DNA of 64,000 nucleotides from Minisyncoccia bacterium (GCA_041738235.1 JBGSQF010000018.1:1404-65403), one strand, 5' to 3'. Shown: positions 727 to 38,672, counted from the stretch's first letter. The notes: generated by a model not told the origin, from the sequence alone. A program made the numbers and translations.

Positions 727-755
727 TTGACAAAAACAATTTTTTGGTGTATACT
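727..755 (+). promoter_or_regulatory. sigma70-like promoter (TTGACA-N17-TATACT)
   Basis: Near-consensus -35 (727-732) and -10 (750-755) with a 17-nt spacer, upstream of the 872 gene. Confidence 0.4.
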
Positions 756-871: not shown

Positions 872-2761
872 ATGTCGGAGGGATACAAAAACACAAAAAA
901 AAGTATACGAATACTTGTCTCCGGAATCTTTATGGTTCTTGGGATTTTTGTGTTTTCCGGAGTGGCGGACGCTGCGACAGGAATCAATAAGCAGATCAGT
1001 TTTCAGGGAAAAGTGGTCAATACTGATGGAACAAATGTTGCCAACGGAAATTATGATTTTGTATTTAAGTTGTACTCCGTGTCTTCTGGGGGCTCTCCAA
1101 TATGGACTGAAACATGGAATAGTGGTACAAGCCAGGTGGCAGTTACTGATGGTATTTTTCAGGTGAACTTGGGAACGCATACTTCATTTCCAGGCTCGGT
1201 GGATTTTAACACTGATAATATTTATCTTGGAGTGACCTTTCATACCGATTCGGAGATGACACCGCGCATTCGTTTTACGGCTGTTCCATACGCATTCAAC
1301 GCAGATAAGATTCACGGATTGAGTGTGACTGACACCACGGGGACATTGACCATTCCAAATGGTAAAACGATTTCTTTTGCGGACGCCTTTGCTACTTCTG
1401 GTGCTTTTTCAACAACATTGACGACAACTGGTGTGACGAGTGTGACGCTCCCGACAAGCGGCACACTCGCCACGCTTGCTGGGGTCGAAGTTCTTACCAA
1501 TAAGACAATTGGTTCAACGGGGCTTATCTTTTCTGGGGCAGCAACGGATATTACCACCACCTCGGGAGAGTCCTTGGTTCTGTCTGCTGGTGGTGCCGGG
1601 ACGGTTGATATACAAGATGCCACGACAGTGGACTCATTGACAACGGATACGGGGGGCGTGTCGATCGCGGCTGGTCAGTCCTATACGGGGGCTGGAGCCG
1701 TAACCTTATCATCGGGGGGGTCGGCTGGGTTGACCCTGGATTCGGCCTCTGGGGTAACTATTATTGCTACGGGTGACTATTTGTCGCTTTCCCACTCTGG
1801 GGTTTCAGGGGCTGCGGCTGGATATATTTGGTACGATTCGAGTGATAATAAGTTTAAGATAAATGAAAATGGCTCAACAAAGGTAGTTTGTAACACAACA
1901 GATGCTGGTTGTGGGGCTGGGGGAGGATTATCAATGGGGGACACCATTGCAAGTGCCACGCAAGGATCTATTCTTTTTGCTGGAACTTCAGGCATACTAG
2001 CTCAGGATAATACTAACTTCTTTTGGGATGATACAAATAACCGTTTGGGAATTGGAACCAATAACCCCAGTCAGGCACTACACGTTAATGGAAGGATCAG
2101 AACGGATGGGGGACTCTTCTTTAACCAAGGCTCCGGATCAACAGACAACTTGATCTATGTAGGATCAGAAGCCTCAGGAAGCGTGAATGCAAGTTTTGGT
2201 TTCTTCGTGGGTGGCATTGGTTCTTCGTCTTCTTCTGATGGTGCCTATTTCTTGGCTCGAGGAAACAGCTTTTCGGGCATATCCAATCAACGTGGGAATA
2301 TGTACTTTGTGGCGGGAAACCCCTCCACTCCGGGGAATACAGAAGGGGCTATTAATTTTTCTACGGGAAGTGATGCTTCAATGGAGATGACCATTGATAA
2401 GAATGGCTATGTTGGTATTGGGACAACGGCACCATCTCGTGCGTTGGATGTGCTACAGTCAGCAAGCGCACCACAACTCAGACTTTCTAAGGACTTGACG
2501 AATTATAGTGAGTTTACCGTGGATTCCGTAGGGGACCTTCAAATTGAGGCCACAGGACATGATATTCGTGCACTTTCGGATAATATGTGGGTGTGTGATA
2601 ACGATGCTTGTCCAGCACTTACCTTAACCGGGCAGGGGAATATTTTTGTGGAGAATGTTCTCAAATTTGGAAATGGCGTGTATATTAAGAATGATTCTAG
2701 TACGGAACTGGGCGTATATGACAAGAATGACAACGCGATGTTGGTGTTTGACGAACAATAA
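872..2761 (+). CDS. large secreted Thr/Gly/Ser-rich surface protein with tail-fibre-like repeats
   Basis: 629 aa with an N-terminal signal-like segment ILVSGIFMVLGIFVFSGVADA. Two copies of a GIGT-x2-PS-x-AL-x-V motif (LGIGTNNPSQALHV, VGIGTTAPSRALDV) and long T/G/S tracts. Confidence 0.6.
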   Translation: MSEGYKNTKKSIRILVSGIFMVLGIFVFSGVADAATGINKQISFQGKVVNTDGTNVANGNYDFVFKLYSVSSGGSPIWTETWNSGTSQVAVTDGIFQVNLGTHTSFPGSVDFNTDNIYLGVTFHTDSEMTPRIRFTAVPYAFNADKIHGLSVTDTTGTLTIPNGKTISFADAFATSGAFSTTLTTTGVTSVTLPTSGTLATLAGVEVLTNKTIGSTGLIFSGAATDITTTSGESLVLSAGGAGTVDIQDATTVDSLTTDTGGVSIAAGQSYTGAGAVTLSSGGSAGLTLDSASGVTIIATGDYLSLSHSGVSGAAAGYIWYDSSDNKFKINENGSTKVVCNTTDAGCGAGGGLSMGDTIASATQGSILFAGTSGILAQDNTNFFWDDTNNRLGIGTNNPSQALHVNGRIRTDGGLFFNQGSGSTDNLIYVGSEASGSVNASFGFFVGGIGSSSSSDGAYFLARGNSFSGISNQRGNMYFVAGNPSTPGNTEGAINFSTGSDASMEMTIDKNGYVGIGTTAPSRALDVLQSASAPQLRLSKDLTNYSEFTVDSVGDLQIEATGHDIRALSDNMWVCDNDACPALTLTGQGNIFVENVLKFGNGVYIKNDSSTELGVYDKNDNAMLVFDEQ

Positions 2762-2770
2762 AATACGGAT

Positions 2771-3532
2771 GTGATCAAGACTATGACGCGAGAATTTGTG
2801 GAATTAAGGAAAAGCATTGTTTATTTTGCGATCGTTCTTTCCTGTCTTTTTTTTGGGTTTTTACTTCTAACAGTACGAGAAACGGTAGTTTTTGGGTTCC
2901 CTGTCAGTGTGCCCGTGTTTGGGGCACCCTCTTTTGCGATGAAACTATTCCTTTTTTCAAAGACATTCCTTGTTCCAGAGGGGGTGCCCATAGTTGCTTT
3001 AGGTCCGATGTCATCTTTTGTGGCACCGATCATTATGGCATTTCTTGTGGCCACACTTCTTTCATTCCCAGTGGGTCTGTATTTGATCGTTCGGTTCCTC
3101 CGTCCGGCACTTCGCCCAAGGGAGAGAAAAACACTGCTCAGGTATATAGCGCCATCAATTTTTTTGTTTTATCTTGGGTGTGCGTTTGCCTATTTTTTTA
3201 TTATTCCAAAGACTTTTTCCATACTCTATGGTTTTGCTCCCCCGCTGGAGGTTGTAACGTTCTTCGCTTTAGATGATTTTATTGCTTCCGTTTTCTTCCT
3301 TACGATCGCGATCGGTTTCTCGTTTCTTTTTCCTGTTGTCATGGTGACCGCATCGCGTATCGGTTTGATCCCGAGGGAATTCTGGCTTTTACACTGGAGG
3401 GGAGCGGTTGCTTCAGTTATCATATTTTCCGCGATCATTACTCCGGATGGAAGTGGGGTAACCATGATATTACTTTCGGTGCCCTTTATGCTTCTTTATG
3501 GTCTGGGAACGGTGATCTCTTTGAAAAGGTAG
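2771..3532 (+). CDS. tatC: twin-arginine translocase subunit TatC
   Basis: 253 aa, polytopic. ELRKSIVYF near the N-terminus matches TatC. FYLGCAFAYFFIIP matches the FYxGxAFAYFvvfP TatC signature, and the ITPDG region matches ITSPED. Confidence 0.75.
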   Translation: MIKTMTREFVELRKSIVYFAIVLSCLFFGFLLLTVRETVVFGFPVSVPVFGAPSFAMKLFLFSKTFLVPEGVPIVALGPMSSFVAPIIMAFLVATLLSFPVGLYLIVRFLRPALRPRERKTLLRYIAPSIFLFYLGCAFAYFFIIPKTFSILYGFAPPLEVVTFFALDDFIASVFFLTIAIGFSFLFPVVMVTASRIGLIPREFWLLHWRGAVASVIIFSAIITPDGSGVTMILLSVPFMLLYGLGTVISLKR

Positions 3533-3538
3533 AGATCT

Positions 3539-4417
3539 ATGTGTTGTGGTATAATAGAAAATATGACATTCCGATTCCTTATAAAATTTTTAAGATACAA
3601 CAACGCCGTGCCGATCATCATCTCTGGGATGATCCTTGGAACGGGTGCAGTATTTGCGACGAATTCCGATCTTCGTCAGGCAGTTTTGTCGTCGTCGGGA
3701 AATGTACAATCGCCAGTTCAAGATGTTCAAAAGACGGACACAACTCGCATTTCTTTGGAAAATATTAACTCGTTTGATTTTAACTTGAAGATCGATTCAA
3801 TTACGGAGGACTCAAAAACATACTTTGTCGTGTATTCCTACAGAACTTTAAATGTAGCAGGTGGGGCGTGGCAAGAAGCTCGTGAGTCAAAGAAAATGGA
3901 GATCCCGAAAGACCTTCTTGGAAAACGTGACCTTAAAGGATATCTTTCAGAACAGATCGGACAGGTGATGGATCGTGAAGTAGCGTATCTTTCTGAGGTT
4001 CAGACAAATCTCAAAAAGACCACTGTGCCAAAAGAATCTACCCAATACGCCTCCCTTGTTGGAAAAGAAATTGATAATAAGAAGAATCCAGGAGCGGATG
4101 TCTCAGAAGGGAAAGCGTCAACGCAAGGAGGGTCAGGCGGGAATTCGGATGGTGAAGTGGGAGCACAAGATGCGTTAGATACGCAAGGGGGAGACGGTCA
4201 GATCGTGACGGTTCTTTCTAAGAAGGAGGTAAATGATATGATCATTGCTGCAATTGATGATTTTTTATCAGTTGACACGAGCATGCCCGATCTGCAAAAT
4301 ATACCAACAGAAAAGGAAAAGACAGTTGAGGAAGGTGTAGCCGCTCCTGAGGGCTCCTCGGTGGACACATCGGCCGGAAGTTTAACTGCAGAGACTACTT
4401 CTGGACAGGAAAATTAA
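3539..4417 (+). CDS. hypothetical secreted/membrane-anchored protein
   Basis: 292 aa. A signal-like segment AVPIIISGMILGTGAVFA precedes a low-complexity acidic/Gly C-terminus. The true start may be the internal Met at 3563. Confidence 0.45.
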   Translation: MCCGIIENMTFRFLIKFLRYNNAVPIIISGMILGTGAVFATNSDLRQAVLSSSGNVQSPVQDVQKTDTTRISLENINSFDFNLKIDSITEDSKTYFVVYSYRTLNVAGGAWQEARESKKMEIPKDLLGKRDLKGYLSEQIGQVMDREVAYLSEVQTNLKKTTVPKESTQYASLVGKEIDNKKNPGADVSEGKASTQGGSGGNSDGEVGAQDALDTQGGDGQIVTVLSKKEVNDMIIAAIDDFLSVDTSMPDLQNIPTEKEKTVEEGVAAPEGSSVDTSAGSLTAETTSGQEN

Positions 4418-4443
4418 TTCACAGTGCATTTGATATGTAGTGG

Positions 4444-4467
4444 AAACGCCGATTTGCGGGCGTTTTT
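4444..4467 (+). terminator. intrinsic terminator
   Basis: AAACGCC-gatttgcg-GGCGTTT stem-loop followed by a T-tract. A TGcTATAAT extended -10 for tatA follows at about 4471-4479. Confidence 0.5.
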
Positions 4468-4510
4468 GATTATGCTATAATAGCGCAAGAATAATATTAA
4501 TCTTAACTTT

Positions 4511-4693
4511 ATGTTGGGTCTTGGTATGCCGGAGATCATTGTTATCGTTTTGGTGGTGGGAATACTTTTTTTTGGAAGCGGAAAGATCACCGAATTTTCT
4601 CGTTCCCTTGGTCGCGTGACAGGGGAATTTAAGAAGGGAAAGCGTGAGGTGGAGGAGGAGTTGAAGGAAGTTACAAAAGAGGACAAAAAGTAA
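4511..4693 (+). CDS. tatA: twin-arginine translocase subunit TatA/E
   Basis: 60 aa, MLGLGMPEIIVIVLVVGILFFGSGKITEFSRSLGRVTGEFKKG. It matches the TatA TM helix, hinge and amphipathic-helix pattern. Confidence 0.75.
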   Translation: MLGLGMPEIIVIVLVVGILFFGSGKITEFSRSLGRVTGEFKKGKREVEEELKEVTKEDKK

Positions 4694-4724
4694 AGACCAG
4701 TTCCTGAATAAAAAAATACATAAT

Positions 4725-5120
4725 ATGTCTCGCTGGAAAAAGGGGGTGCAAAAAAGGATGACTCCGGTTTCTTCTGTGGTGAAGCGGGTGGTTTTTGGTG
4801 TTCGAGAAAAATTTAATCGACTACGGGAAGCTCGAATTTTTCCTCTTTTGAGGCCACAAAAAAAAGATCAAAATATAAATACCCGTAAGAAAGATATTTT
4901 TGACCCTCGTCGGCGAACATTTTTGAAGTACGCGCTTTTTGGAAGTGGGGTTTTTCTTTTGGGAAAGTATCTCAACCCGATCATCAACTTGATCCAAGGG
5001 GATGTCGTACTGAGTGAAAAAACATTTCAGAACTTTAAGGTCACTGAGACGGGGAAGCAGCTCAAGGTGATGGATGATGAGGGGGATGAGTTACTTATTA
5101 TTGATAAAGAGGGTTTTTAG
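4725..5120 (+). CDS. small protein with twin-arginine (Tat) signal motif
   Basis: RRRTFLKYALFGSGVFLLG is a textbook S/T-RRxFLK Tat motif with an h-region. An in-frame TTG at 4848 would give a 22-aa n-region and a 91-aa product. The mature part is only about 50 aa. Confidence 0.45.
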   Translation: MSRWKKGVQKRMTPVSSVVKRVVFGVREKFNRLREARIFPLLRPQKKDQNINTRKKDIFDPRRRTFLKYALFGSGVFLLGKYLNPIINLIQGDVVLSEKTFQNFKVTETGKQLKVMDDEGDELLIIDKEGF

Positions 5121-5121
5121 T

Positions 5122-5790
5122 ATGGCTATTCGTATTTCTAAAAATCGTGTTGCGCTCTCTGGGATACCGCTCAATTTGGCGGCAGAGGTGGATGTTGCTT
5201 CAGCAGGAACAACCAATATTGGTGCAGCGGCGTCCAATAACATTCGTATTACAGGCACCACAACGATCACAGCCTTTGATAATGTGGCCGCGGGGATTCG
5301 ACGTACTGTCCGGTTTCAAGGGGCTCTCACACTAACGCATAACGGTACGTCACTGATCCTTCCTGGTGGGGTCAGTATTGTGACGGTGGCTAACGATACG
5401 GCAGAATTTCTTTCTCTTGGTTCTGGAAATTGGATCTGTCTTTATTATGACTACGCCAGAAAGCGTTCTCAACGGGTTTTTTCCGAGGCATCGAATGCAA
5501 CTCCAACACCGAACGTTGATACGACCGATGTACACATTGTTACTGCGCTTGCGGTTGGGGCAACTTTTGGTGCGCCTACGGGAACCCCAACACATGGGCA
5601 AAAACTTATTATTCGTATCAAGGATAACGCCACCGCGCGATCGCTTGCCTGGAATGGAGCTTACCGAGCCAGTAGTGACCTAGCGCTTCCTACCACGACA
5701 GTTCTTTCCAAAACGATATATCTTGGATTTATGTATAACTCGACCGACGCAAAATGGGATCTTTTGGCAAAACTTGATAACTTTTCTTAA
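5122..5790 (+). CDS. hypothetical Thr/Ala/Gly-rich beta-type protein (first gene of cassette A)
   Basis: 222 aa from ATG 5122, which sits behind an AAGAGGG RBS. The ORF track's 5074 start overlaps the upstream gene. No family recognised. Confidence 0.45.
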   Translation: MAIRISKNRVALSGIPLNLAAEVDVASAGTTNIGAAASNNIRITGTTTITAFDNVAAGIRRTVRFQGALTLTHNGTSLILPGGVSIVTVANDTAEFLSLGSGNWICLYYDYARKRSQRVFSEASNATPTPNVDTTDVHIVTALAVGATFGAPTGTPTHGQKLIIRIKDNATARSLAWNGAYRASSDLALPTTTVLSKTIYLGFMYNSTDAKWDLLAKLDNFS

Positions 5791-5793
5791 ACT

Positions 5794-7734
5794 ATGGCCA
5801 CAAGACTTAAGACCGTTGATTATGCTGTTCCAATGTTGCTGACTTTGGCCGACAACACGCTGACAGCGATGACGACCATTACAGCGTATATCCCTGAGTT
5901 TTCCGGAACGGTCACTATTCGAAAGGCGATCGTCGAGGTGAACTTCAACCAACGATCAGTCGCGACGACCGTAACGCAAAACTTCACTACTCGAGAGGTG
6001 GATGTTTCTGTTGGGGGCGCGACTGCTACGAAGTATATCAACTCCAACCTCTATACGGGATCGGGAGAGACAACTTCTGTTTTTTATGCGGCCGATGCGA
6101 CGGCTCATTTCTCAAGTAATTGGACGAGTGGCACGAATAAAACGATAGCCCTCTCCGTTCTTGTTGATGGGTCGACCGATGCGACAGCCGCGGCGACTTG
6201 GTGTAATGTCTCCGCGACCATCTACATCACCTACGAGTATGATGATACGCAGACGACGCAGATCAAGACGGTCTATATTCCACTCAATGCCCCAACGACG
6301 ACACTGCCAATATCCAAGTCAACTGTGCACGACACGATTCCCGCACTGGATACGTATTGTCCCGAGGCTTCCAAAACGTATCGCAATATTTCCGTTGTAT
6401 TTCAGGGGAACGTCGGTGTTGCCACCGCAACGGACGCAACAATGTCGATGCAGATCGATACGTATACGGCACTTACAACTACATCTGAGGAGCGAGGAGG
6501 TGCCTCGAACTTTTGGAATCGTTATGTATGGGCACATCAGTACTATAATGCCGGGGGAGCTTCAGCGGGTATTGGTATGACCACGAATGCGACCCACAGT
6601 TTTTATATGTGGAACTCGACAGCAAACTACAACCATCCCCAGGTCTTTATGATGGTAACGTATGAATTTGATGCTTCTGCGTCAAATAATATGATCGTGT
6701 CGCTCGTTCTCCCAATGGAAGTGGACTCTCCTATGGGAAATAACTCCTCTGCCAATAATCAGCGTGCCACTCGTGATCTTTGGATCGAGGAGCCAGCAAC
6801 TATTACGATGCAACGGGCGGCTTATTATGTGTATTGGGACCAAATTTCCAATATTAGCCAACTTTGGATGCGTACCGGCGCAGCGTCGTATGTGCAGTAT
6901 ACGGACGCTGCCACCACTTTAGGTGGAAGTAACGGGGCCATGTTTCGCAACGACTCTTTTTCCCTTGCGCGTGGAAGACAAACAGCTAACTTTGACATTT
7001 ACACGACTGAGGCGCAGACCGGAGATCTTGGTTGGAATGTGTCCGGTTTCTGGATCCTCAATTATACGGCTGGGAAACCGAGCCAGGGATATGGTGCCGC
7101 CAATCATACCGTAAAATGGAATTTGAATGCCACCTTTGATGGTGCGGCAAATGTTATCCATGATATTGCCGCTACAGCTCCTATTATCCCCGAAACGAAC
7201 TATTTTATCACCGCTTTGGGGACGAACTATCAGTATATTTCCAATACAACGGGTCAGCCGATCGGTGTGGCCGTGATGTTTCGGGACGATAGTGATACAC
7301 AGTGGGTCACGGCGTATCGGGATATTTCGCATACGGACCCTGAGACGGGGCTCAGGCGATGCTGGAGTCAGATCCGATCTAATTTTAGACGTTTTCCCGG
7401 GGATCTCGATCCGAATCGTGGAATAGATATCACCACAGCTCGAAAGTGGCGATGTGTTCTTGGGAACGCATGCAACTCGTTTGATTACCTTGATCTTTAT
7501 ATTTCTTATCATTCCATTACATTTACTGTGGGTGGAACGATATCGGGAAGTGCTGGTGGGACGGTCGATATCGATCTTCATAGAACTGTTCAGAAGGAGG
7601 AAGTGCTCTCAACAACACGTGTGGGGAATGGTACGTACTCGTTTACTTGGTATGATAATACTGAGAATGTCTATTCGGACGCTCGGGAGGACGGGACGCA
7701 TCTTGGAAGGAGTGACAGTGGTCTTGCAACATAA
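5794..7734 (+). CDS. large Asn/Thr/Tyr-rich protein, paralog A (MATRLKT family, unknown function)
   Basis: 646 aa. N- and C-termini are clearly paralogous to the 8587..10473 ORF (MATRLKT..., ...YHSITFT..GSAGGTV.I.L.RT...VLST.R.GNG.YSFTWYDNT...THLGRS). Many N-x-T/S sequons. No obvious signal peptide. Confidence 0.7.
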   Translation: MATRLKTVDYAVPMLLTLADNTLTAMTTITAYIPEFSGTVTIRKAIVEVNFNQRSVATTVTQNFTTREVDVSVGGATATKYINSNLYTGSGETTSVFYAADATAHFSSNWTSGTNKTIALSVLVDGSTDATAAATWCNVSATIYITYEYDDTQTTQIKTVYIPLNAPTTTLPISKSTVHDTIPALDTYCPEASKTYRNISVVFQGNVGVATATDATMSMQIDTYTALTTTSEERGGASNFWNRYVWAHQYYNAGGASAGIGMTTNATHSFYMWNSTANYNHPQVFMMVTYEFDASASNNMIVSLVLPMEVDSPMGNNSSANNQRATRDLWIEEPATITMQRAAYYVYWDQISNISQLWMRTGAASYVQYTDAATTLGGSNGAMFRNDSFSLARGRQTANFDIYTTEAQTGDLGWNVSGFWILNYTAGKPSQGYGAANHTVKWNLNATFDGAANVIHDIAATAPIIPETNYFITALGTNYQYISNTTGQPIGVAVMFRDDSDTQWVTAYRDISHTDPETGLRRCWSQIRSNFRRFPGDLDPNRGIDITTARKWRCVLGNACNSFDYLDLYISYHSITFTVGGTISGSAGGTVDIDLHRTVQKEEVLSTTRVGNGTYSFTWYDNTENVYSDAREDGTHLGRSDSGLAT

Positions 7735-7751
7735 TTTTTTGTATAAGAGTT

Positions 7752-7913
7752 ATGGCATTTGCGGATATTACTTTGCGGGATAATGGGACAAATACCTTTG
7801 ATATTACGCTTTCTGGTGGAGTCACTTCCACGGGGGGCAGTAATTTCTTTTTCTTTATTCATGAGGTTTGTCTTGTGGCTTTCTTTGTTGGTTCTTTTTT
7901 CTTGGTTTGGTGA
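7752..7913 (+). CDS. small conserved ORF (53 aa), not in ORF track; paralog of 10485..10649
   Basis: MAFADITLRDNGTNTFDITLSGGVTSTGGSNFFFFIHEVCLVAFFVGSFFLVW. It shares RDNGT..FD..LS.GG..S.G..NFF.FF plus a hydrophobic tail with the peptide after paralog B. The nucleotide sequence has diverged while the motif is kept. Confidence 0.4.
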   Translation: MAFADITLRDNGTNTFDITLSGGVTSTGGSNFFFFIHEVCLVAFFVGSFFLVW

Positions 7914-7918
7914 TCTCT

Positions 7919-8275
7919 ATGGCGTCTAAGAGGGTTTTTTGGGGAATGAGCATACTGATGGTCTCGGCATTTCTTGTGGCGGGTTATTTTGCGTATTGGT
8001 ATTTTACTTCGCCTGAAGCGGTCGTACGTAGAGAGGTCGCAAAATGGGTTGGGATCATCGGAAGAGGGGTAGATCTTCCAAAAGGAGAGATACCTACTCT
8101 GGCCACAGTGACCAACAAAGACAGATTGGATCAGCAAGCATTTTTTCAGAAGGCGGAAAATGGAGATAAAATGCTTATTTATAGTCAAAGCGGCATAGTG
8201 ATCCTATATCGGCCATCCTTGAGAAAGGTCATTGATATGAGTCGGGTGGTCATAGAAAAGGCTCAGCCGCAGTAG
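7919..8275 (+). CDS. membrane-anchored protein, paralog of N-terminal half of 10777..11619
   Basis: 118 aa from ATG 7919 (the ORF-track start 7868 overlaps the small ORF). TM helix SILMVSAFLVAGYFAYWYF. It shares PTLATV...QAFFQKAENGDKMLIYS...YRPS with the downstream paralog. Confidence 0.5.
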   Translation: MASKRVFWGMSILMVSAFLVAGYFAYWYFTSPEAVVRREVAKWVGIIGRGVDLPKGEIPTLATVTNKDRLDQQAFFQKAENGDKMLIYSQSGIVILYRPSLRKVIDMSRVVIEKAQPQ

Positions 8276-8505
8276 AAAACTGATCTCTGGGTAAATCTTG
8301 GCTGGACGAGTATTTTGTGTTATATTAGGAAATGTAAACACATTCTTGTTTGGGGCACTTGTTGGTTGTAGTAGACCTTTTAGTGTCGTTTTCAAGAAAA
8401 CAAAGAAATAAAATTTGTTTTCATGAGAATTGAGTTGGGGAAAAATTAAAATACTACACGTTTTTATGTTGGGGTCATGGTTTCTGTGGCGGTTGGCTGT
8501 TTTTC

Positions 8506-8527
8506 GGCACCTTGAGGTGCTTTTTTG
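8506..8527 (+). terminator. intrinsic terminator
   Basis: GGCACC-ttga-GGTGC stem followed by TTTTTT. Confidence 0.4.
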
Positions 8528-8586
8528 TTTTTGTTAAAAATGGCTCAGATATAAGTAAAATGTTAATTTTATAATCTATATAGAGC

Positions 8587-10473
8587 ATGGCAACGCGTTT
8601 AAAAACGATAGAATACTATTTGGATGAGATGGACAGCATCTCCGATAATACTGATACGAATTTTAACCAGATCACAATCGATATTCCCGAGAGTTCCCCG
8701 GATTTTCGATCGGTCACTCTGGAAATAATGTGGCACGATGCTTCAACAGTGACCAATAACACGTCAAGGCGGCAACTCTCAGTACAACTCGGTTCTGCGG
8801 GGTATACTTCGGTCAATAATACCAACACTATTACACAGTCGGGAGAGGATATTTGGCTTCAGTTTGCCGCAAATTTTACCGCATATTTTAATACTAACTG
8901 GTCGGGGACCAGCATGACCTTTGATGCAAGGGCTTTGATAGATTCAGCTGCCACAGCCCCTATTATTCGTGCAATTACATGTAAAGTGACTGTAACGTAT
9001 GCTTATGACGACACTTCGACAACGCACATAAAGACCGTGCGTATCCCACTTTTTGGGAGTTATGGTGCGCTTACGACATCTAAGCCGGGAACTCCAAACG
9101 CCACTATTCCACTTTTTGATACCTGGCTTCCTGAGGACAGTGTAAGTATTAAGCACATGGCTGTCGTGATCCAGGGAAATGAGGAATCTGCGGGTACTGT
9201 GGATATGAGTATGACGATGCAGATAGACGCACTAACGTCTCGAACAACCCCGCTCCACGAAAAAGGACGCGCAACATCGTCTTGGTATCGACATACATGG
9301 AACCAAAATAGTCTGGATACAAGTACATCGCATGAATTTTATCTTTGGGCTTCGGTGACCGACTTTGACCATCCGCAAGTGTGGATGATCGTTACCTATA
9401 CGTTCAATGCGACGAACACAACGACGGTGATGAATAGTTTGATCCTTCCAATGGAGTTTGATAGTCCGGCAGGGGGACCTACTTCGTCTGATTGGCAACG
9501 AGCTTGGAGGGATGTCTGGATCGAGGAGCCGGGAACTATCACCATTAAAGAGACAGCGATCTTTATCCATTATGAACAGCGTGCGGCTGTGTCAGGACTC
9601 AATGCGAGAATGGCAACTGATAGCTTTCATGCGATCACCAGTGTGGGTACTGTGGTTGCCGGAGGGTGTGGTTTTATGCTTCCGGGAGGTCAGGGGTTGT
9701 TCTCTCTGTCGCGTGGGAAAAATACCGGTTACGCAGATATTTACCGAACTGATACGACGGACTTGGTCTGGAATATTAGCAGTTGGTGGATGCTGAATTA
9801 TACCAGCGGTAAGGCAACAGATGGTGTAGGAGCGCATAACCATACGGTGATACGCAATTTATTCACGCACGATACCGTTAACGCTGATAATAACTGCACG
9901 ACCCCTGCTGTATCTCCCAGTATTCCGGAGACAAATTGGTTTATGAACTCTTGTGGATTGAATTATCAATATTTGACGAATACGACGGGAAATCCAACAG
10001 GAATATCGATCCAGGTGGAGCGTCTTACGGCTGAGGGAGGAATAAAGTGGGAGCAGATCTATAACGATAGCGCAGATAGCGATCCTGAAGTGGGAATACG
10101 GCAGTGTTGGGCGACGGCGAGAAAGGTTTTTTTTCGGTGGCCGGGTGATCCGGGAGAGGAGCGTATTGCGATACAAACAGATCGTCGGTATAAAGTGTAC
10201 ACTGCCTTTGGAGCTAACGCCTGGGATCATTTGGATCTCTATATGACGTATCATTCCATAACCTTTACCGCAAGTGGGACAGTAACGGGTTCTGCGGGAG
10301 GAACAGTAGAGATCGGTCTTTATAGAACAACGGGAGAGAAGGTACTTTCTACTTCACGTTCGGGTAACGGAGTCTATTCATTTACTTGGTATGACAATAC
10401 CGCGACGCTTTTTACCGAGGCCATAGAAGACTCAACACATTTGGGAAGGAGTAACGATGCATTGGCATCTTAG
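8587..10473 (+). CDS. large Asn/Thr/Tyr-rich protein, paralog B (MATRLKT family)
   Basis: 628 aa, a paralog of 5794..7734 with the same N- and C-terminal signatures. Confidence 0.7.
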   Translation: MATRLKTIEYYLDEMDSISDNTDTNFNQITIDIPESSPDFRSVTLEIMWHDASTVTNNTSRRQLSVQLGSAGYTSVNNTNTITQSGEDIWLQFAANFTAYFNTNWSGTSMTFDARALIDSAATAPIIRAITCKVTVTYAYDDTSTTHIKTVRIPLFGSYGALTTSKPGTPNATIPLFDTWLPEDSVSIKHMAVVIQGNEESAGTVDMSMTMQIDALTSRTTPLHEKGRATSSWYRHTWNQNSLDTSTSHEFYLWASVTDFDHPQVWMIVTYTFNATNTTTVMNSLILPMEFDSPAGGPTSSDWQRAWRDVWIEEPGTITIKETAIFIHYEQRAAVSGLNARMATDSFHAITSVGTVVAGGCGFMLPGGQGLFSLSRGKNTGYADIYRTDTTDLVWNISSWWMLNYTSGKATDGVGAHNHTVIRNLFTHDTVNADNNCTTPAVSPSIPETNWFMNSCGLNYQYLTNTTGNPTGISIQVERLTAEGGIKWEQIYNDSADSDPEVGIRQCWATARKVFFRWPGDPGEERIAIQTDRRYKVYTAFGANAWDHLDLYMTYHSITFTASGTVTGSAGGTVEIGLYRTTGEKVLSTSRSGNGVYSFTWYDNTATLFTEAIEDSTHLGRSNDALAS

Positions 10474-10484
10474 AAAAAAGACAT

Positions 10485-10649
10485 ATGGGAAACTTCGATA
10501 TAGAAATGCGAGATAATGGGACAGGTGATTTTGACCTTTCTCTTTCTTCGGGGGGTGGAGCGTCATCCGGGAACGGCAACTTCTTTTTATTTTTTGATGT
10601 TTTTCCGGTGCTTTCTTTGATGCTTTTTGGAGCGATCTTGTTTGTATAA
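10485..10649 (+). CDS. small conserved ORF (54 aa), not in ORF track; paralog of 7752..7913
   Basis: MGNFDIEMRDNGTGDFDLSLSSGGGASSGNGNFFLFFDVFPVLSLMLFGAILFV. Same motif and hydrophobic tail as cassette A. Confidence 0.4.
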   Translation: MGNFDIEMRDNGTGDFDLSLSSGGGASSGNGNFFLFFDVFPVLSLMLFGAILFV

Positions 10650-10776
10650 CGTGGGTATGACTGTTCAAAAGGGTTTTTGGTTTTGGTGGGAATCTTTGTG
10701 TGTATGGGGGTAGGATGTGGTTGGTAAATATGATCCTTTTCTTGTATACTAAGAAGAGTAATTATAAGAGACCAAT

Positions 10777-11619
10777 ATGTTCTTATTTCAAAAAAAATCA
10801 AATTCAAGTGAGGCTCCTAACGAGGGCATGACACCGGCTGAGGGTTCTTTGAGGAAGGGTCGGATCAAGGTGGGTCTAGTTGCCAGTGTAATTGTTTTGA
10901 TCATTGCTGGTTCTCTTGGGACAGCTGGGTATTTCTATCACGCGTACAAAAAGGCTCTCACGCAGGTTGTTCCTGCGGCTGATGAGATATCAACGCTAAC
11001 CGAGAAGATATCGCGTATTGCAGAGCTTCCTTCCAGTGAGACTCCTACGCTTGCAACGGTATCCGATATATCAAAACTCTCCGGACAGAATTTTTTTGAG
11101 CGGGCACAAAATGGTGATAAGATACTGATCTATACTGGGGCTGGACTGGCATATATATATCGTCCATCAACAGGCAAGATAATTAATATCTCACAGCTCA
11201 ACACGCAGGACGTTCCCCAGGGAGGGGGAGATCAGGTTGCCTCTACACCCGCTCCTGAGCAGGTGCTTGGCGAGGAGGCGACCCAGCCAGTTGAAGAAAA
11301 GGTAGCAGAGCCCGAGGTTCCTGCTAAGCCTGCTCGCATTGCCCTTTACAATGGCACAGGAAGAAAAGGACTTACCTCGATCTTTGAAAAAGAGTTTCTT
11401 TCTGAAAAAGAGGGTGCATTTGAAGTTGTTGCCAAAGAGAATGCATCCAGTGCGGAGTATCAGGAAACGGTCATTGTGGATCTTACGAATAATCAGTCCG
11501 TTCGTGCTCAGCAGTTGGCGGATAAACTCGGTATATCTATTGCCGACGGGGTGCCTAATGGAGAGGTGTCACCCCCAGATACGGACATTCTGGTGATCTT
11601 AGGCGCCGATATTAAATAG
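10777..11619 (+). CDS. membrane-anchored protein with C-terminal LytR_C-like domain
   Basis: 280 aa with a TM helix VGLVASVIVLIIAGSLGTAGYF. The PTLATV...QNFFERAQNGDKILIYT...YRPS block is shared with 7919..8275. The C-terminus ARIALYNGTGRKGLTS...VIVDL...AQQLADKLG fits the LytR_C pattern. Confidence 0.55.
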   Translation: MFLFQKKSNSSEAPNEGMTPAEGSLRKGRIKVGLVASVIVLIIAGSLGTAGYFYHAYKKALTQVVPAADEISTLTEKISRIAELPSSETPTLATVSDISKLSGQNFFERAQNGDKILIYTGAGLAYIYRPSTGKIINISQLNTQDVPQGGGDQVASTPAPEQVLGEEATQPVEEKVAEPEVPAKPARIALYNGTGRKGLTSIFEKEFLSEKEGAFEVVAKENASSAEYQETVIVDLTNNQSVRAQQLADKLGISIADGVPNGEVSPPDTDILVILGADIK

Positions 11620-11698
11620 GAGCGGCGAAAATGAGGTACTGAAGGAGGGAAAACACCCTCTTTCTTTTTGTTCTAGGCGAGGTTATACTAAGTGTACT

Positions 11699-13114
11699 AT
11701 GAGACAAAAACAAAAAAATACTTGGCGATATACGGCAGTGAGGCTACATTTTCTTTTCGCGCTTCTGATCCTGAGCGTGTATATTGCCGCCTCTTTTTTC
11801 TATAGCCCAGAATTTCTCATTTCAAGTCTAAAAGGCAAGGCCATTGCCTTTGCGGACGACATCGTAGTTACGGCCACCGTGTTAGGTGCTCCTGTGCAAC
11901 CCGTGGTCTCTGGGAACGCTCAGTGTATCGATGGATCGCTGTCTGTTTCGTTGGATTGGGCTGATGATGTGAACTCTACATCGTACGATGTAGAGCGTAA
12001 TGGACCTCCTTTGGTTTCAGGTATTCTCTCATCCGCGTATCAAGATACTTTTGTGGCGGTTGGAACGAGCTACACGTACGTGGTGATTGCCCATGGTCCT
12101 ATGGGATCGGGTATGGCTGTTTCTGATCCATTTGTAGTTACTACGCCATCGCAATGCGCTAACATTCTTCCTGCGCCCACAGTGGCTCTCACTGCTTTTG
12201 ACGGGAGAGGCATAAGTGGGACAATGAGAACAACGGAGCAGAGACCGCTTTTTGAAGGAACATCTAATATCCCAGGTGCCATCATTGCTTTGCAAATAAA
12301 TGGTGTGACCACGGTACAGGCGCAGGTAACAACAAATGTTAATGGTTATTGGAGCTGGCGTCCTTCGGTAAATATTTCTTATGGAGCGCACACGCTTTTT
12401 TTCACAGCTACAGATCCTAATGATACCAACAGACAAGTCTCGGCATCGTTTGATTTTTTGATCGCAAAAGAAAAGACCGAATCCTCTTCCAAGACGTCAA
12501 AGGAAAATAGTTCTCCGATCAGTGTTTCTCATTCAACTGTAGGAGTGTCTTCCCCGACGGTTAAAGTTCCATCAGTGGGAGTTCCTCTTGATTTCTCTCT
12601 TTCTCTGGGAAGGGGAAGTGTTTTGCAGGGCGACAGATTACCTGTAGAGGTTTTCACTAAACGATTGTCTGGGGAATACGAGAACACGAATGCGATCCTG
12701 CGTTTTTCGATCGTGGATGAGGATGGGGTTGAAAGAGTTGTGGAGTTTCAGGATATAGTCCTCACAAAAGAGGGGGTTTATGGATCCTCCCTGCTCATTC
12801 CTGGGTATATGAAGAAAGGACGGTATGCTGTTGTTGCACAGATCCGTTTCGGTTCATACGATGTTGCTCGAGAGCAGGAATTTTTGGTTTTGCCACGGCC
12901 TGTTTTGAATCTTGGGGGAGGTATGGTATTGACCTATCCAGATGTATTGGATCGTCTTGGAGATGTCGCTTTTCTTTTGTTTCTCCTATTACTTTTGTGG
13001 ATCTTTGCTTTTTCAAAGGAGTATCTTTTGTATCTTCGTTCTTGGCGGCATATTACTGAAAGACACTTACAAAAACTCGGGTTTTTTGGAAAGAGAAAGG
13101 GGGTGGGCGTATGA
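11699..13114 (+). CDS. membrane-anchored surface protein (Ig/FN3-like middle, hydrophobic C-terminus)
   Basis: 471 aa with an N-terminal TM helix. The middle beta-rich region has Cys pairs. The C-terminus LGDVAFLLFLLLLLWIFAF is hydrophobic. Confidence 0.45.
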   Translation: MRQKQKNTWRYTAVRLHFLFALLILSVYIAASFFYSPEFLISSLKGKAIAFADDIVVTATVLGAPVQPVVSGNAQCIDGSLSVSLDWADDVNSTSYDVERNGPPLVSGILSSAYQDTFVAVGTSYTYVVIAHGPMGSGMAVSDPFVVTTPSQCANILPAPTVALTAFDGRGISGTMRTTEQRPLFEGTSNIPGAIIALQINGVTTVQAQVTTNVNGYWSWRPSVNISYGAHTLFFTATDPNDTNRQVSASFDFLIAKEKTESSSKTSKENSSPISVSHSTVGVSSPTVKVPSVGVPLDFSLSLGRGSVLQGDRLPVEVFTKRLSGEYENTNAILRFSIVDEDGVERVVEFQDIVLTKEGVYGSSLLIPGYMKKGRYAVVAQIRFGSYDVAREQEFLVLPRPVLNLGGGMVLTYPDVLDRLGDVAFLLFLLLLLWIFAFSKEYLLYLRSWRHITERHLQKLGFFGKRKGVGV

Positions 13115-13422
13115 GTCCCATTGAGGTGATCGTGGTGGTGAAAGGGATAACGTTAGTGGCGCTTCTTTTTTCGATCGTGTTCACTGCTGGGGTAGTTTGG
13201 CGTGTGGAGCGTAAGCTCGACACATCGTACAAGGCATTTTTGGCGGGAATACTTTTTGAGATCGCCGCCAATGTTCTTGGGCTTTTTTCGTTTGACCAAC
13301 TTGGAGGAATCATGAATGTTGTGGCAAATGTGTTCCATATGCTTTTTGCTTTAAGTTTTTTGGCTGGAGTATTGTGGATGCGTAGTATCATTCGGGAAAT
13401 AGATGGAGAGAAAGAGAAGTGA
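13111..13422 (+). CDS. small membrane protein
   Basis: 103 aa with three predicted TM segments. Its start overlaps the previous stop by 4 nt (ATGA). Confidence 0.4.
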   Translation: MSPIEVIVVVKGITLVALLFSIVFTAGVVWRVERKLDTSYKAFLAGILFEIAANVLGLFSFDQLGGIMNVVANVFHMLFALSFLAGVLWMRSIIREIDGEKEK

Positions 13423-15383: not shown

Positions 15384-18300
15384 ATGACCACACAAACACT
15401 CAACAAAAATATAACCAAAAGTGAAAAGGATCGATCGGAGAAGACCACAAAAACACTTTCGGCCATGCGGACCAGATCTGAGGAGGAGCATGCGCTAGGA
15501 TTGGCACTTGCGATGCGTTTGCCGTATATGGACTTGCATCTTATGCCGGTTGATGCGGATGATGTGTTAAATATGCCATTAGAGGACTCCAAGCGTTTGC
15601 TTGCGGGGGTGTTTGTAAAACGTGGAAGAAGTGTCCGGATCGGAGCGGTTGTTCCCGATAGTCCAGAGTTGGGGGAGTATATAGAACAGTTGGAAGAAAA
15701 AAAGGGTTGGTCCGTTGAGCTCTATGTTATTTCTCAGACTTCATTAGATAAACTCTGGGAACTGTATAGTAAGCGAAACCTTCTCGATAACTTGGATACG
15801 ATGAAGATCGATCTGGATCGCGAGGACTTGGAGAAATTCGAGGAGAACTTCGGGGATATTATCAAGCTCCGGGATCGGATGGAAGAACTACCTACATCTG
15901 AACTTATCGCTCTTGTTTTTTCGGGCGCGATCAAAATGAAGGCAAGTGATATCCACTTTGAGGTGAACGAAAATGATGTTCGGATGCGATATCGTTTGGA
16001 CGGGGTATTGAATGATATTGGAAGTTTTCCTTTACGATCCTATAAGCTGGTTGTTTCGCGTATCAAAATGATGTCGAAACTCAAGCTGAACGTTCGATCT
16101 CGCGCTCAGGATGGACACTTCTCTTTGTCTGCGGATGAAAACAAAGGGTCTGGAAGGATCGATGTTCGTGTGAGCATTATCCCGAGTCGATATGGAGAGA
16201 GTATTGTGATGAGAATTTTGCGACAGGATTCTATTTTGCTTGGTGTTGAGGATCTCGGTCTTCGTGGTCGTGCGTACGAACGACTTCAAGAAGCGATCGG
16301 ACAGACCAATGGAATGGTCCTTACAACAGGTCCGACAGGTTCTGGAAAGACCACCACGCTGTATGCGATCATTAACAAACTTAACAAGTCGGACATCAAG
16401 ATCATCACCATAGAAAATCCGGTTGAATACGAGATAGCAGGCATTTCGCAGACGGAGGTAACTAAAGAGGGGTATGACTTTTCGCAAGGACTTCGTGCAA
16501 TCGTTCGTCAAGACCCAGATGTTATATTAGTGGGGGAGATCCGGGACGATGAGACGGCATCAGTTGCGGTCAATGCGGCACTTACCGGGCACCTGGTGCT
16601 TTCTACGGTGCACACCAATAACGCCGTTGACACTATTCCACGTTTGGTGGAACTGGGTGTAAAACCCTCTCTGATCGGTCCTTCTATTAATGTAGCTATT
16701 GCGCAACGGTTGGTCAGGCGACTGTGTACACATTGTCGAGAAACCTATGTTCCTGCGAAAGATACGATACAGATGCTGCAAAAGATATTGGCGGTCATTT
16801 CACCAAAGGCGGGGGTGGTGATCCCATCAAAGATCGAAACGTTGTATCGTGCCAAGGGATGTGCTAAGTGCAACAATATTGGGTACTCCGGACAGGTGGG
16901 TATATTTGAGGTGCTTGGCATGTCTGATGAGATACAAAAACTCATTGATGCGATGCGTCCGCACGGGGAGATCTTAAAAGTGGCGGTAGAAGAGGGAATG
17001 GTGGCGATGGAACAAGATGGGATCCTTAAAGCCATAGAGGGAGAGACATCCATTGAGGAGGTATGGCGCGTGGCAGGTGAGGGAGATTTCCTGAAGGAGC
17101 TGTATGAAGAGTTGATGCAGCAGACATTAGGCAGGGCACTCTTGCTTTCACATGAGATTCTTGACGATGTGGAACAAAATGCAAAAACAAAGGAACTTTT
17201 TGCTGAACATATCAAAAATGTTCCCGTAGAGAAGTTGCTTCCTTTCATATTTTCCGGTGCATTGCTTTTTGATGCGGGGGATATTCATATTGAACCTGCT
17301 AAAGATAGTTTTTCCGTTCGATTCCGTATTGATGGCATCCTCCAAACTATGGCCGAGCTTCCCCGAACACAATATCCGGGTCTGTTGGGAGAAGTAAAGG
17401 TTTTGAGCGGGCTGAAGTCACAGGCAGTGGCCGGCACAGCCGATAGTCGATTTTCGATCCAGAAAGAGGGACTAGAGGATCAACCCGGAGAAGGATCAGT
17501 GGATATCCGTGTTTCTATTTTGATGGGGGGGTATGGAGAGACAGTGGTGTTGCGACTACTGAATACTGCAGCAGTAGCTCTCGATCTTGAAAAATTGGGT
17601 ATCCGTGAGCAAAATCTTAAAAAGATCAAAAAACAGATGAGTCGGCCGAATGGATTTTTCTGTAATACGGGACCAACTGGTTCCGGAAAGACGACCACGT
17701 TGTATAGCATCTTGAAGATCCTTAATTCTCCAGATATAAAGATCATGACCGTTGAAGATCCGATCGAGTATCGGCTTGACGGCATCTTGCAAACACAGGT
17801 TAACGCTGAGGAAGGATACACATTTTCAAATGCTCTTCGTACGCTTCTTAGACAAAATCCAGATATTATTATGATCGGAGAGATCCGAGATGACGAGACG
17901 GCCCAGATCGCTGCTCAGGCGGCTCTTACAGGACACTTTGTACTTTCTACGCTTCATACAAATAACGCCATAGGGTCTATCCAGCGACTTCTGAATGTCG
18001 GAGTCAGTCCCGACAATCTTGCAGAACTGGCCAATGGATTTATGGCTCAACGACTTATTCGTGTGCTTTGTGAGTGTAAGAGAGAAAAAGAGGCAACGGA
18101 GGAAGAGAAAAAACGACTGACGGATGTTTTGAAAACCATTTCTAGTCAGTCAGGTGTTGTTGTTCCTCCGGTAGGGAAGATCTATGAACCGGGAGGTTGT
18201 GAAAAATGTCGGGGACTGGGGTACCGTGGGAGAAGTGTTATCAGTGAAGTGCTGACCGTTGATGGGAGCATTCAGGAACTTATTGCGCAAAGAGCGTTGA

Positions 18301-30572: not shown

Positions 30573-30647
30573 TCCGGCGTGGCGCAGCGGTAGCGCAGGG
30601 GACTGTTAATCCCTTGGTCGTAGGTTCGAATCCTACCGCCGGAGCCA
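30573..30647 (+). tRNA. tRNA-Asn (anticodon GTT)
   Basis: Acceptor stem TCCGGCG/CGCCGGA. D-arm GCGC-AGCGGTA-GCGC. Anticodon stem GGGGA/TCCCT with loop CTGTTAA. T-arm GTAGG-TTCGAAT-CCTAC. CCA is encoded. Confidence 0.8.
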
Positions 30648-35360: not shown

Positions 35361-35392
35361 ACGCTGTGTAAATAATAATGTGAATTAAATGC

Positions 35393-35768: not shown

Positions 35769-35774
35769 ACGAAA

Positions 35775-38658: not shown

Positions 38659-38672
38659 ATTTTGAGAACACT

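Follow-up and report, generated by a model that had tools for sequence, protein, structure and literature searches.

What do two adjacent gene modules, each made up of a large protein, a small ORF and a membrane anchor, do in the genome of a Minisyncoccia bacterium? An earlier note on this DNA had placed a tandemly duplicated surface-protein cassette at positions 5122–11619 of the window (the whole 64-kb stretch analysed). All of its ORFs are present at the coordinates it gave, and the region is real, but its start is wrong: the unit reaches upstream to 872 and takes in a fibre gene and tat genes, so that a boundary at 5122 splits an operon. Our best reading, a tentative one and part of the explanation developed below, is that 5122–11619 is the distal portion of an ~11-kb envelope operon (872–11619) of a Moranbacteria-like CPR bacterium.

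Layout and conservation of the gene cluster

All features described here lie on the + strand. The best sigma-70-like promoter match ahead of the operon (727..755; TTGACA-17-TATACT, 11/12) is a consensus match only, and the total count of promoter-like sites is no higher than shuffle expectation. The first gene of the conserved cluster encodes a 629-aa fibre protein with a Sec-type signal peptide (872..2761). It is followed by genes for TatC (2771..3532; 42–57% identity to LG neighbours in loci L006, L014, L015, L017, L022 and L026), p292 (3539..4417) and TatA (4511..4693; orthologues 69–90% identical); the L006 orthologues of the two tat genes carry PF00902 TatC and PF02416 TatA_B_E, respectively. 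p292, an N-terminally anchored protein with an acidic tail (family f9, 9 loci), has no Pfam or PHROG match and in this lineage is always found between tatC and tatA. RR131 (4725..5120) is a small twin-arginine protein with the motif RRRTFLKYALFGSGVFLLGK and then a ~45-aa beta-hairpin-like tail, and its stop codon lies 1 nt ahead of the start of A0 (5122..5790), a signal-less two-domain protein of 222 aa.

Next comes the first large protein, LG-A (A1, 646 aa; 5794..7734), which is all-beta and has no signal peptide, then the 53-aa A2 (7752..7913), with an N-terminal docking-type motif MAFADITLRDNGTNTFDITLSGG, a Gly-rich linker and a hydrophobic C-terminal helix, and A3 (7919..8275), a short membrane-anchored paralogue of ~118 aa with a PTLATV...NGDK.LIY...YRPS domain. 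From RR131 to A3 the spacing is tight (gaps of 1, 3, 17 and 5 nt). The B unit consists of LG-B (B1, 628 aa; 8587..10473), which is a second allele type of the large protein, B2 (54 aa; 10485..10649), with a docking-type motif (HMM match at 10491) and a hydrophobic helix, and B3 (280 aa; 10777..11619), with an N-in membrane anchor, a conserved extracytoplasmic domain, a linker and a LytR_C domain. Between the A and B units are a terminator-like hairpin with a T-run (8506..8521) and, after it, a promoter-like site (8534–8561), both of them consensus matches only. The B unit seems to be transcribed separately and lacks an RR131 or A0 of its own. The region's strongest terminator-like hairpin, directly after B3 (11641..11664), probably marks the end of the unit.

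The order of large protein, small ORF and anchor, for which the earlier note had suggested a synteny search, recurs in 8 distinct Moranbacteria-type loci. The longer order fibre-TatC-p292-TatA-RR131-A0-LG-small ORF-anchor is found in L006/8, L014, L015, L017, L022 and L026. TatC is encoded three genes from LG in L010 and L020, and in L030 TatA and TatC are encoded downstream of LG. Related tat operons without LG have a core of TatC, TatA and an RR protein, followed by a protein that starts MAIKISKNR.

The LG family in chromosomes and tailed phages

None of the cassette's three proteins matches a described family, in agreement with the earlier note. LG is nevertheless no orphan: its family counts 938 or more clusters (50% identity) and over 593 close homologues that are uniform in length, and has no relative in Pfam, NCBIfam or PDB. 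It is a big, undescribed, all-beta family common to CPR chromosomes and tailed phages. The AlphaFold2 model of LG (pLDDT 89.8, pTM 0.92) is all-beta: roughly four jelly-roll-like domains are joined by an Ig-like one at the C-terminus. Its N-terminus forms a beta-strand of the fold (residues 3–18, pLDDT 93) rather than a signal peptide. The model has no full-length structural match in BFVD (TM-score at most 0.18), and it differs from jelly-roll proteins such as PNGase F and viral single or double jelly-roll capsid proteins in having no full-length match to them. A candidate identity as a double jelly-roll major capsid protein was rejected for lack of full-length structural similarity; LG is also not the capsid protein of its phages, since their major head proteins are of the HK97 type. 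Some family members carry fused ends that, judged by eye, resemble CBM, LamG or FN3 domains.

LG is present in at least 54 genuine tailed-phage contigs (54 IMG/VR loci), where its gene lies among those for virion structure: in the loci examined, genes for portal, terminase, protease, major head, Neck1 and collagen-like tail-fibre proteins (PHROGs) lie within 8 kb of it. Homology of the large proteins to phage structural proteins, which the earlier note had named as grounds for abandoning its reading, is thus found in part, in that relatives are encoded in many virion-structural modules of tailed phages. The phage loci span 33–71% GC (most 58–71%), and LG phages therefore infect many kinds of host. 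No cultured phage with LG was found, the sole INPHARED match being an unannotated 735-kb metagenomic phage, and for this reason the label 'adhesion module' that we use below rests on neighbours and fusions.

The two large proteins are paralogous, as proposed, and align end to end (43% identity, E = 5e-167). Their conservation is patchy over the whole length, contrary to the description of conserved ends and a divergent middle, with the best-conserved stretches at residues 1–30, 151–210 and 571–646. The two modules are indeed adjacent, but they are not a recent tandem duplication: dS between the copies is saturated (a dN/dS comparison that the earlier note had asked for), and LG-A and LG-B each group with a different allele type that is found singly in other genomes, so that two old allele types stand side by side. 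L017 also holds two LG copies (1 of the 8 distinct Moranbacteria-type loci). Within allele types dN/dS is 0.04–0.08; the genes are functional and under purifying selection.

Partners of LG: the docking-type motif, anchors and phage-fibre relatives

The small ORFs share a motif, as had been noted: A2 and B2 are weakly similar by BLASTP (2e-05), and they are the sole two significant matches to the family motif HMM in the window (E = 1.5e-12 and 1.6e-09). The gene after LG begins with this ~22-aa motif, MAFADIxLRDNGxxxFDIxLS. Among 2.1 million six-frame residues, 57/57 HMM matches at E<0.01 follow an LG gene on its own strand, and most begin 0–30 nt past the LG stop. A match lies within 300 nt of 40 of the 68 non-redundant LG genes, the other 28 being missed by the HMM at that threshold. 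The partners that carry the motif range from 51 to 2182 aa; in phages it heads highly variable fibres or propellers, and in Moranbacteria-type loci the version with a membrane helix is conserved through the helix. We infer that the motif may be the peptide by which a partner docks onto LG. In phage receptor-binding proteins such as T7 gp17 and lambdoid side fibres, the N-terminal anchor is conserved and the distal part varies, and the post-LG gene is similarly modular, with a short conserved N-terminus and extremely variable C-terminal parts. It differs in that the conserved part is just ~22 aa, LG, the platform, belongs to an undescribed family, and the CPR version has a membrane helix where the variable part would be.

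The two anchors are related, as claimed (40% identity over ~100 aa, E = 4e-23, for 7868–8275 against 10777–11619), although the first most likely starts at ATG 7919, just past the small-ORF stop, and not at TTG 7868. Of the two, B3 alone has a LytR_C domain (PF13399, residues 187–278, 28.1 bits against a gathering cut-off of 22.2), and a short form similar to A3 occurs in L022. A Sec signal peptide is present in 15 of 15 distant cellular LG homologues (from Elusimicrobia, DPANN archaea and others); it stops exactly before 'ATRIKTVEY', the point that matches LG residue 2. A cell-envelope role for the cassette is plausible.

The upstream proteins also have phage-like features. Relatives of A0 either are tail-fibre proteins of phages or occur in fusions with DUF2793, Mtd_N or BppL_N, and A0 itself, judged by these homologies, is probably built from phage tail-fibre or tailspike-adaptor modules. 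In its model the first 20 residues are disordered, and there is no hydrophobic N-terminus. A0 is 76–86% identical among Moranbacteria (about 50 MAG proteins). Its identity to branched tailspike and tail-fibre adaptors (CBA120 TSP4 N-terminal domains and T4 gp9/gp10-like proteins; PDB 7rej, 7rfv, 9f4a) is low (10–13%), and it differs from them in being only 222 aa long, without an enzymatic or fibre part, and chromosomal. The fibre gene keeps the same position in 8 loci. Its product has a Sec-type signal peptide (...VADA|ATG) and then a weak match to NF053851 Bdello_MAT_N (residues 30–112, E = 2.3e-06, 27.5 bits against a cut-off of 60), with no S74 domain and no Pfam family at E<=0.05. The mosaic adhesive trimer (MAT) fibres of Bdellovibrio, itself a bacterium that lives on others, are surface adhesins that resemble phage fibres and have exchangeable tips (PMC10769870); their conserved domain is ~130 aa, beta-rich and immediately past the signal peptide. 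The fibre protein here may be alike in its order of signal peptide and weakly MAT_N-like domain, although the match is below the cut-off. LG is unlike MATs, being a globular multi-jelly-roll protein without a signal peptide, whereas MATs are trimeric beta-helices exported by Sec as single chains.

The twin-arginine protein and possible roles of the cassette

The earlier note had remarked that the large proteins have no obvious signal peptide. They are signal-less, but a candidate answer had been missed: tatC, tatA and the gene for a twin-arginine protein lie directly ahead of the cassette. A scan for (RR|RK|KR)xF[LI] plus a hydrophobic stretch gave 17 matches, all 0.55–2 kb upstream of chromosomal LG genes, and no match in the 54 phage LG loci. 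The RR131 motif, of the canonical S/T-R-R-x-F-L-K type, sits at the n-/h-region boundary and reads PRRRTFLKY in the window, [KQSR]RR[AT]FLKY in 8 orthologues, SRRNFLK in L105 and KRRKFLK in L106; Saccharimonadia analogues have RK instead of RR (TRKQFL, DRKEFLK), several with no tat gene within 10 kb. The h-region, as read from the sequence, is short and weakly hydrophobic (ALFGSGVFLLG, then K). RR131 had no match to curated Tat-signal models (PF10518 and TIGR01409, which are very short) at Pfam E<=1 and NCBIfam E<=0.1, nor did P0242 at E<=0.05. No A-x-A signal-peptidase site follows the h-region of RR131 (L106 has ALA-AP), and the signal may act as an uncleaved anchor. As an ORF, RR131 has an unusually long basic N-region; translation may in fact begin at ATG 4758.

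Paceibacteria and Saccharimonadia are known to have TatA and TatC, for which no substrates have been named (PMC9166423), and hitchhiking through Tat is an established mechanism in other protein complexes (PMC4273604). The E. coli hitchhiker systems HyaAB/HybOC (hydrogenase), DmsAB and PaoABC (PMC4273604) resemble the locus in having signal-less proteins (here LG and A0) beside a lone twin-arginine-signal partner; further likenesses are that tatA and tatC are both encoded in this genome and that the cargo is predicted to be compactly folded. Those systems carry cofactor-containing redox enzymes, whereas the cargo here would be phage-derived beta-sandwich proteins; in addition, the mature part of the signal-bearing partner is just ~45 aa, and the tat genes are inside the same operon.

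The explanation we favour, tentatively and with somewhat less than even confidence, is that the cassette is an adhesion module of phage origin that the cell has domesticated, exports in folded form by Tat hitchhiking and fixes to its envelope. That LG belongs to a family common to tailed phages and sits in an operon with the cell's own Tat genes suggests that a phage part has been re-used as a surface device. Because LG and A0 are signal-less and encoded immediately after tatC, tatA and RR131, they would fold and assemble in the cytoplasm and leave by riding with RR131 through the Tat translocase that the operon itself encodes. A2 and B2, which join the docking motif to a membrane helix, would hold LG at the membrane's outer face, and the wall-binding LytR_C anchors and the Sec-exported MAT-like fibre would complete the assembly. 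Its likeliest job would be to recognise or adhere to surface glycans of another cell (the presumed episymbiont's host), and the two LG allele types could confer two specificities. Several points count against this reading: the features of RR131 given above (no curated-model match, no A-x-A site, a long basic N-region), the RK motifs and distant or absent tat genes of Saccharimonadia versions, the 28 LG genes missed by the motif HMM, the apparent B transcript without RR131 or A0, and a cargo that could be too large for Tat if LG or A0 oligomerise like phage fibres.

An unlikely alternative is anti-phage exclusion, in which the LG platform and its fibre-less docking peptide act as decoys that sequester or mis-assemble the fibres of infecting phages, or mask a receptor. 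Chromosomal and phage alleles are fully intermixed in the LG tree, and LG alleles in one chromosomal slot are merely 30% identical, with the adjoining A0 83% identical, the pattern expected of an arms-race locus; a fibre-less docking peptide could also compete. However, few LG phages are likely to infect this organism, since most have 58–71% GC, unlike CPR genomes, and the Tat link, LytR_C anchors, Sec-exported fibre and signal peptides of distant homologues point outward, not to cytoplasmic interference.

Less likely again, LG could be an S-layer-like or wall-associated lattice protein of CPR cells, with the phage copies being captured host genes. LG is compact, all-beta and rich in Thr and Asn; its N-x-S/T sequons, which the earlier note had called many, are enriched, though modestly (17 where 9.6 are expected and 14 where 8.1 are, P ~0.01–0.02); and the gene is linked to wall-binding anchors and under strong purifying selection. 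A uniform lattice is harder to reconcile with an LG gene in only some CPR lineages, radically different allele types in the same slot and phages that cover many host GC classes, and the pairing of phage LG with variable fibres suits recognition better.

We give a lower probability still to an enzyme that processes glycans, either secreted or at the surface, such as a PNGase-F-like protein or a depolymerase of the kind found on many phage spikes. The LG family alignment contains invariant Asp, Glu and His residues, and A0 resembles the N-terminal adaptors of depolymerase tailspikes, but the structural match is confined to a single jelly-roll domain (10% identity), many jelly rolls that are not enzymes score almost as high, and LG has no sequence match to any enzyme family. 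A decaying prophage remnant without cellular function, which the phage association of LG and A0 might suggest, is close to refuted by intact ORFs, the low dN/dS, the identity of A0 across MAGs, the retained chromosomal synteny with tat genes, the lack of head, portal or terminase genes in the window's first 20 kb and the cell-specific additions of an RR protein and a membrane helix.

Returning to the domesticated module, a stronger form of this explanation, which we consider doubtful, is that CPR bacteria have a dedicated Tat-hitchhiker route, with a tiny twin-arginine escort carrying pre-assembled A0-LG, a receptor-recognition complex of phage origin, to the cell surface, and that LG cassettes have been captured repeatedly from phages of the CPR cell's bacterial host. 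If this is true, the episymbiont would be borrowing the host-recognition specificity of a phage.

Two large-protein copies of an undescribed family

The open reading frames (ORFs) of both cassettes were present where the earlier note had placed them, and its interpretation as a whole was supported in part. The two copies of the large protein (LG), LG-A (5794-7734) and LG-B (8587-10473), aligned over their full length with 43% identity (E = 5e-167), and the membrane anchors A3 and B3 shared 40% identity across ~100 residues, with a LytR_C domain in B3 only. The short ORFs following LG, A2 and B2, had weak BLASTP similarity and were the sole significant matches to the family-wide motif HMM (described below) in the 64-kb window. 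The sharing of large proteins and anchors was borne out; A3 probably begins at ATG 7919. Conservation within LG was patchy along its length instead of being confined to the two ends around a divergent middle, and the reported N-x-T/S sequons were enriched, but only ~1.7-fold.

The two copies are adjacent, as a tandem duplication would have them, but they belong to allele types that are each matched in other genomes. LG-A fell with the first of the two L017 copies and with the one LG that L006/L008 carry (L numbers denote homologous loci elsewhere), and LG-B was nearer to the LG of L014/L015 (51% identity versus 47-48% to LG-A), the second copy of L017, one L030 copy and one phage. Both types stand side by side in the window and in L017. 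Within an allele type, LG was under strong purifying selection (dN/dS 0.04-0.08) and as conserved as A0, the adjacent tailspike-adaptor-like protein (L014 versus L015: 94% amino-acid identity for LG, 89% for A0). Across genomes, LG alleles in the same slot were as low as 30% identical with the adjacent A0 at 83%. Judged from these comparisons, the slot-wise divergence of LG is cassette replacement and not fast drift. A dN/dS estimate between the two paralogues themselves, which the earlier note had proposed, was uninformative because dS was saturated. Sequence signals, all of them consensus matches only, suggest that the B unit is a separate transcript: terminator-like and promoter-like sites lie between A3 and LG-B, and a strong hairpin of the terminator type follows B3.

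LG had been described as belonging to no recognised family, and this held: searches of Pfam, NCBIfam and PHROGs returned noise only, and neither LG nor A0 had a PDB match by single-sequence or profile searches. Close homologues of LG number >593 and vary little in length (620-660 aa), and at 50% identity an exhaustive profile search gave at least 938 clusters. With 40 homologues as input, AlphaFold2 returned a confident (pLDDT 89.8, pTM 0.92), all-beta model, whose strand pattern gives about four jelly-roll-like domains and a C-terminal Ig-like sandwich. Foldseek against viral models (BFVD) gave TM-scores ≤0.18, so the architecture is new, even if it is assembled from common building blocks. 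Matches at this level to secovirus polyproteins and lambda J-like proteins were rejected as generic likeness among jelly-roll strings. Some family members are fused to ends resembling CBM, LamG or FN3, as judged by eye. The LG family, new and undescribed, spans tailed phages and CPR bacteria and extends as a domain to Elusimicrobia and DPANN archaea; we found no description of it, or of this gene arrangement, in the literature searched.

Several other features were observed in the window. A probable integrated mobile or defence island (30573-45274) lies beside a tRNA-Asn (30573-30647) and encodes a large serine recombinase (30744-32348, minus strand), a Toprim primase-like protein (33105-35360, minus strand), an N6/N4 DNA methylase (38673-40643), a Schlafen/AlbA_2 protein (40586-42295) and a ResIII helicase (42389-45274); GC skew inverts over 30-38 kb. 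A 1012-aa protein (15384-18422) with two GPTGSGKTTT Walker A motifs reads as two putative tandem-fused secretion or pilus ATPases, and a 957-aa CARDB-domain protein (20975-23848, minus strand) is probably a surface protein.

Phage homologues and the motif of the gene after LG

Homology to phage proteins, which the earlier note had set against its own reading, was found, though the family is undescribed: in a pattern scan, full-length LG was encoded in 54 IMG/VR loci at 25-49% identity. These loci are real phages, with genes for portal, large terminase, head protease, major head, Neck1 and collagen-like tail fibres ≤8 kb from LG. Their GC content ranged from 33 to 71% (median 60%), which implies hosts of many kinds, mostly not CPR. 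LG was not found in any cultured phage in the GenBank phage collection (INPHARED), where the single match was an unannotated 735-kb metagenomic phage. This uncultured 'megaphage' record (LR756501.1) holds a full-length homologue at 99450-101399 (30% identity) and a second LG-matching place. Neighbour-joining did not separate phage copies from chromosomal ones; the two were fully intermixed.

A0 (5122-5790) also has relatives in phages. It is 76-86% identical among ~50 Moranbacteria proteins, and hundreds of proteins with other architectures contain its N-terminal domain at ~70% identity, some of them together with DUF2793, Mtd_N, BppL_N or collagen. By tblastn, its N-terminal half matched Rhizobium phages (annotated 'tail fiber') and EBPR siphovirus 2, and its C-terminal half matched mycobacteriophages; the two halves occur apart in phages. 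The ~100-aa domain at residues ~17-112 (5122-5460; 1757 homologues overall), found ~70% identical in very many unrelated architectures, is unusually conserved for a phage fibre module.

The ~22 residues that open A2 and B2 (MAFADIxLRDNGxxxFDIxLS, with variants) also open the phage gene that begins 0-30 nt past the stop codon of LG. Beyond this motif, the partner sequences are wholly different, extending over 51 to 2182 residues of repeats, coiled segments or Kelch propellers. A motif HMM built from 23 N-termini was searched against the six-frame translation of all loci (2.1 million residues), and all 57 matches at E<0.01 lay downstream of LG on the LG strand. Among the 68 non-redundant LG genes, 40 had a motif neighbour within 300 nt at this threshold, and several more had a neighbour with a weaker yet recognisable motif. 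Exchangeable phage fibres typically combine a short conserved N-terminus with a variable distal part. Following this fibre grammar, we read the motif as a peptide that may dock the partner protein onto LG. The small ORFs of the window and its nearest relatives add to the motif just a linker rich in Gly and a hydrophobic helix, which is conserved. The acidic N-terminal part of such ORFs presumably favours an N-out orientation, as in small membrane proteins generally.

The tat operon and a proposed export route

The three-gene order recurs by synteny, as the earlier note had anticipated, and the order in the window is kept in L006/L008, L014, L015, L017, L022 and L026: a Sec-signal fibre gene, tatC, a gene for a conserved membrane protein (p292), tatA, RR131, A0, LG, the small ORF and one or more anchors. 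L018 shares the order from RR131 on, its contig stopping short of the tat genes. The label 'Moranbacteria-like' comes from the names of close relatives, several of which are implausibly named at NCBI, for example 'uncultured Bdellovibrionales'. RR131 (4725-5120) has a canonical twin-arginine motif, RRRTFLKYALFGSGVFLLGK, followed by ~45 residues, and RR131, A0, LG, A2 and A3 are spaced by 1, 3, 17 and 5 nt. The operon's first gene (872-2761), ahead of tatC in 8 loci plus L104/L105, encodes a protein whose Sec signal peptide precedes a region weakly matching the Bdellovibrio MAT N-terminal domain (27.5 bits against a cut-off of 60).

In Saccharimonadia, the module consists of a 64-82-aa protein with [ST/D]RKxFL and a hydrophobic stretch, a fibre-like protein, LG and a Kelch propeller that opens with the docking motif; tatC lies three genes off in two such loci. 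In another lineage, tatA and tatC lie just downstream of the LG module. Four signal-peptide genes (~200, 300, 310 and 205 aa) immediately precede the LG cluster in L001 (5950-9008) and L004 (4931-7979), and this set, with a weak WxLIP_PGBD match in one nearby gene and weak Big_6 and Glucodextran_B matches in another, resembles Gram-positive WxL/Csc surface-complex operons.

Small ORFs on both strands of all loci were scanned with a regular expression for twin-basic Tat-like signals; all 17 matches lay 0.55-2 kb upstream of a chromosomal LG, and none lay in the 54 phage loci. A word-pre-filtered search with the RR131 signal and tail found 4 proteins. Small ORFs of 58-73 aa, with a helix and then a YKIxV-type hairpin, lie directly upstream of LG in several phages (L055 7818-7994, L071 7787-7999, L080 7805-7999, L083 7798-8001, L090 43-264, L100 1437-1628). 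Homology of such upstream ORFs (7 phage loci) to the RR131 C-terminal hairpin would have tied escort to cargo; it was unsupported, with an hhalign probability of 0.8%.

Two LG-less tat operons from groundwater metagenomes keep the core of TatC, TatA and RR protein, followed by a protein starting MAIKISKNR or a close variant, which is an A0-type N-terminus. In L106, a tat operon lacking LG, the apparent cargo (11665-13398) is two His/Asn/Thr-rich repeat proteins (306 and 266 aa) with no family match; a DUF2190-like assignment of an L105 cargo protein was unsupported. A metagenome scan with TatC gave 7 loci, mostly short and too few to judge cargo across CPR tat operons. TatA and TatC are on record in Paceibacteria and Saccharimonadia, with substrates unnamed (PMC9166423). 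The literature searched did not address Tat cargo in CPR, which have no respiratory chains.

In all 15 distant cellular LG homologues with a readable N-terminus (from Elusimicrobia, Endomicrobia, Firestonebacteria, Ignavibacteria, one deltaproteobacterium and DPANN archaea), the end of a Sec-type signal peptide falls exactly in front of 'ATRIKTVEY', a point equivalent to LG residue 2. Giant proteins of 1445-1884 aa in DPANN/Elusimicrobia loci (L038 6678-11021, L044 7926-12263, L034 7877-13531) open with a signal peptide and the LG N-terminal domain; a second protein of 203-208 aa in the archaeal loci also clustered with the LG family. Phage LG thus has neither a signal nor another export feature, distant cellular LG has a fused Sec signal, and CPR LG has no signal of its own but is preceded, two genes before it, by a mini-protein with a Tat signal, in many cases with tat genes nearby. 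The proposal that RR131 would carry signal-less A0 and LG through Tat as hitchhikers draws chiefly on this contrast among the three settings, and the N-in anchor B3 with its LytR_C domain and the CBM-, LamG- or FN3-like fusions support it further.

A candidate surface-recognition module

From homology, synteny, motif and fold as returned by the tools, we infer contacts, export route and adhesion function. The best-supported account is that the cassette is a domesticated phage surface-recognition module, exported folded by Tat and held at the envelope. The folded LG module would leave through the operon's own Tat system, escorted by the RR mini-protein; at the envelope, LytR_C anchors and the docking peptide with its membrane helix would hold it, and the module would present two specificity types. 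Rival readings are that the cassette acts as an anti-phage decoy, forms an S-layer-like structure or encodes a glycan-processing enzyme; that it is a prophage remnant is nearly excluded.

Two documented systems come nearest to the proposed recognition module: enzyme complexes that hitchhike through Tat (PMC4273604) and, in Bdellovibrio, MAT adhesins that resemble phage fibres (PMC10769870). Both Tat hitchhiking and the domestication of phage virion parts are known; the undescribed protein family underneath is new. The two-gene grammar of LG followed by a gene with the ~22-aa motif could aid fibre-gene annotation in many uncultured phages. To our knowledge, little is known of host recognition and attachment by ultra-small CPR episymbionts beyond type IV pili. 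The locus offers concrete, testable candidates for CPR host recognition and for CPR Tat cargo, and may be a case of phage adsorption hardware moved to the cell surface by a route undescribed for such proteins.
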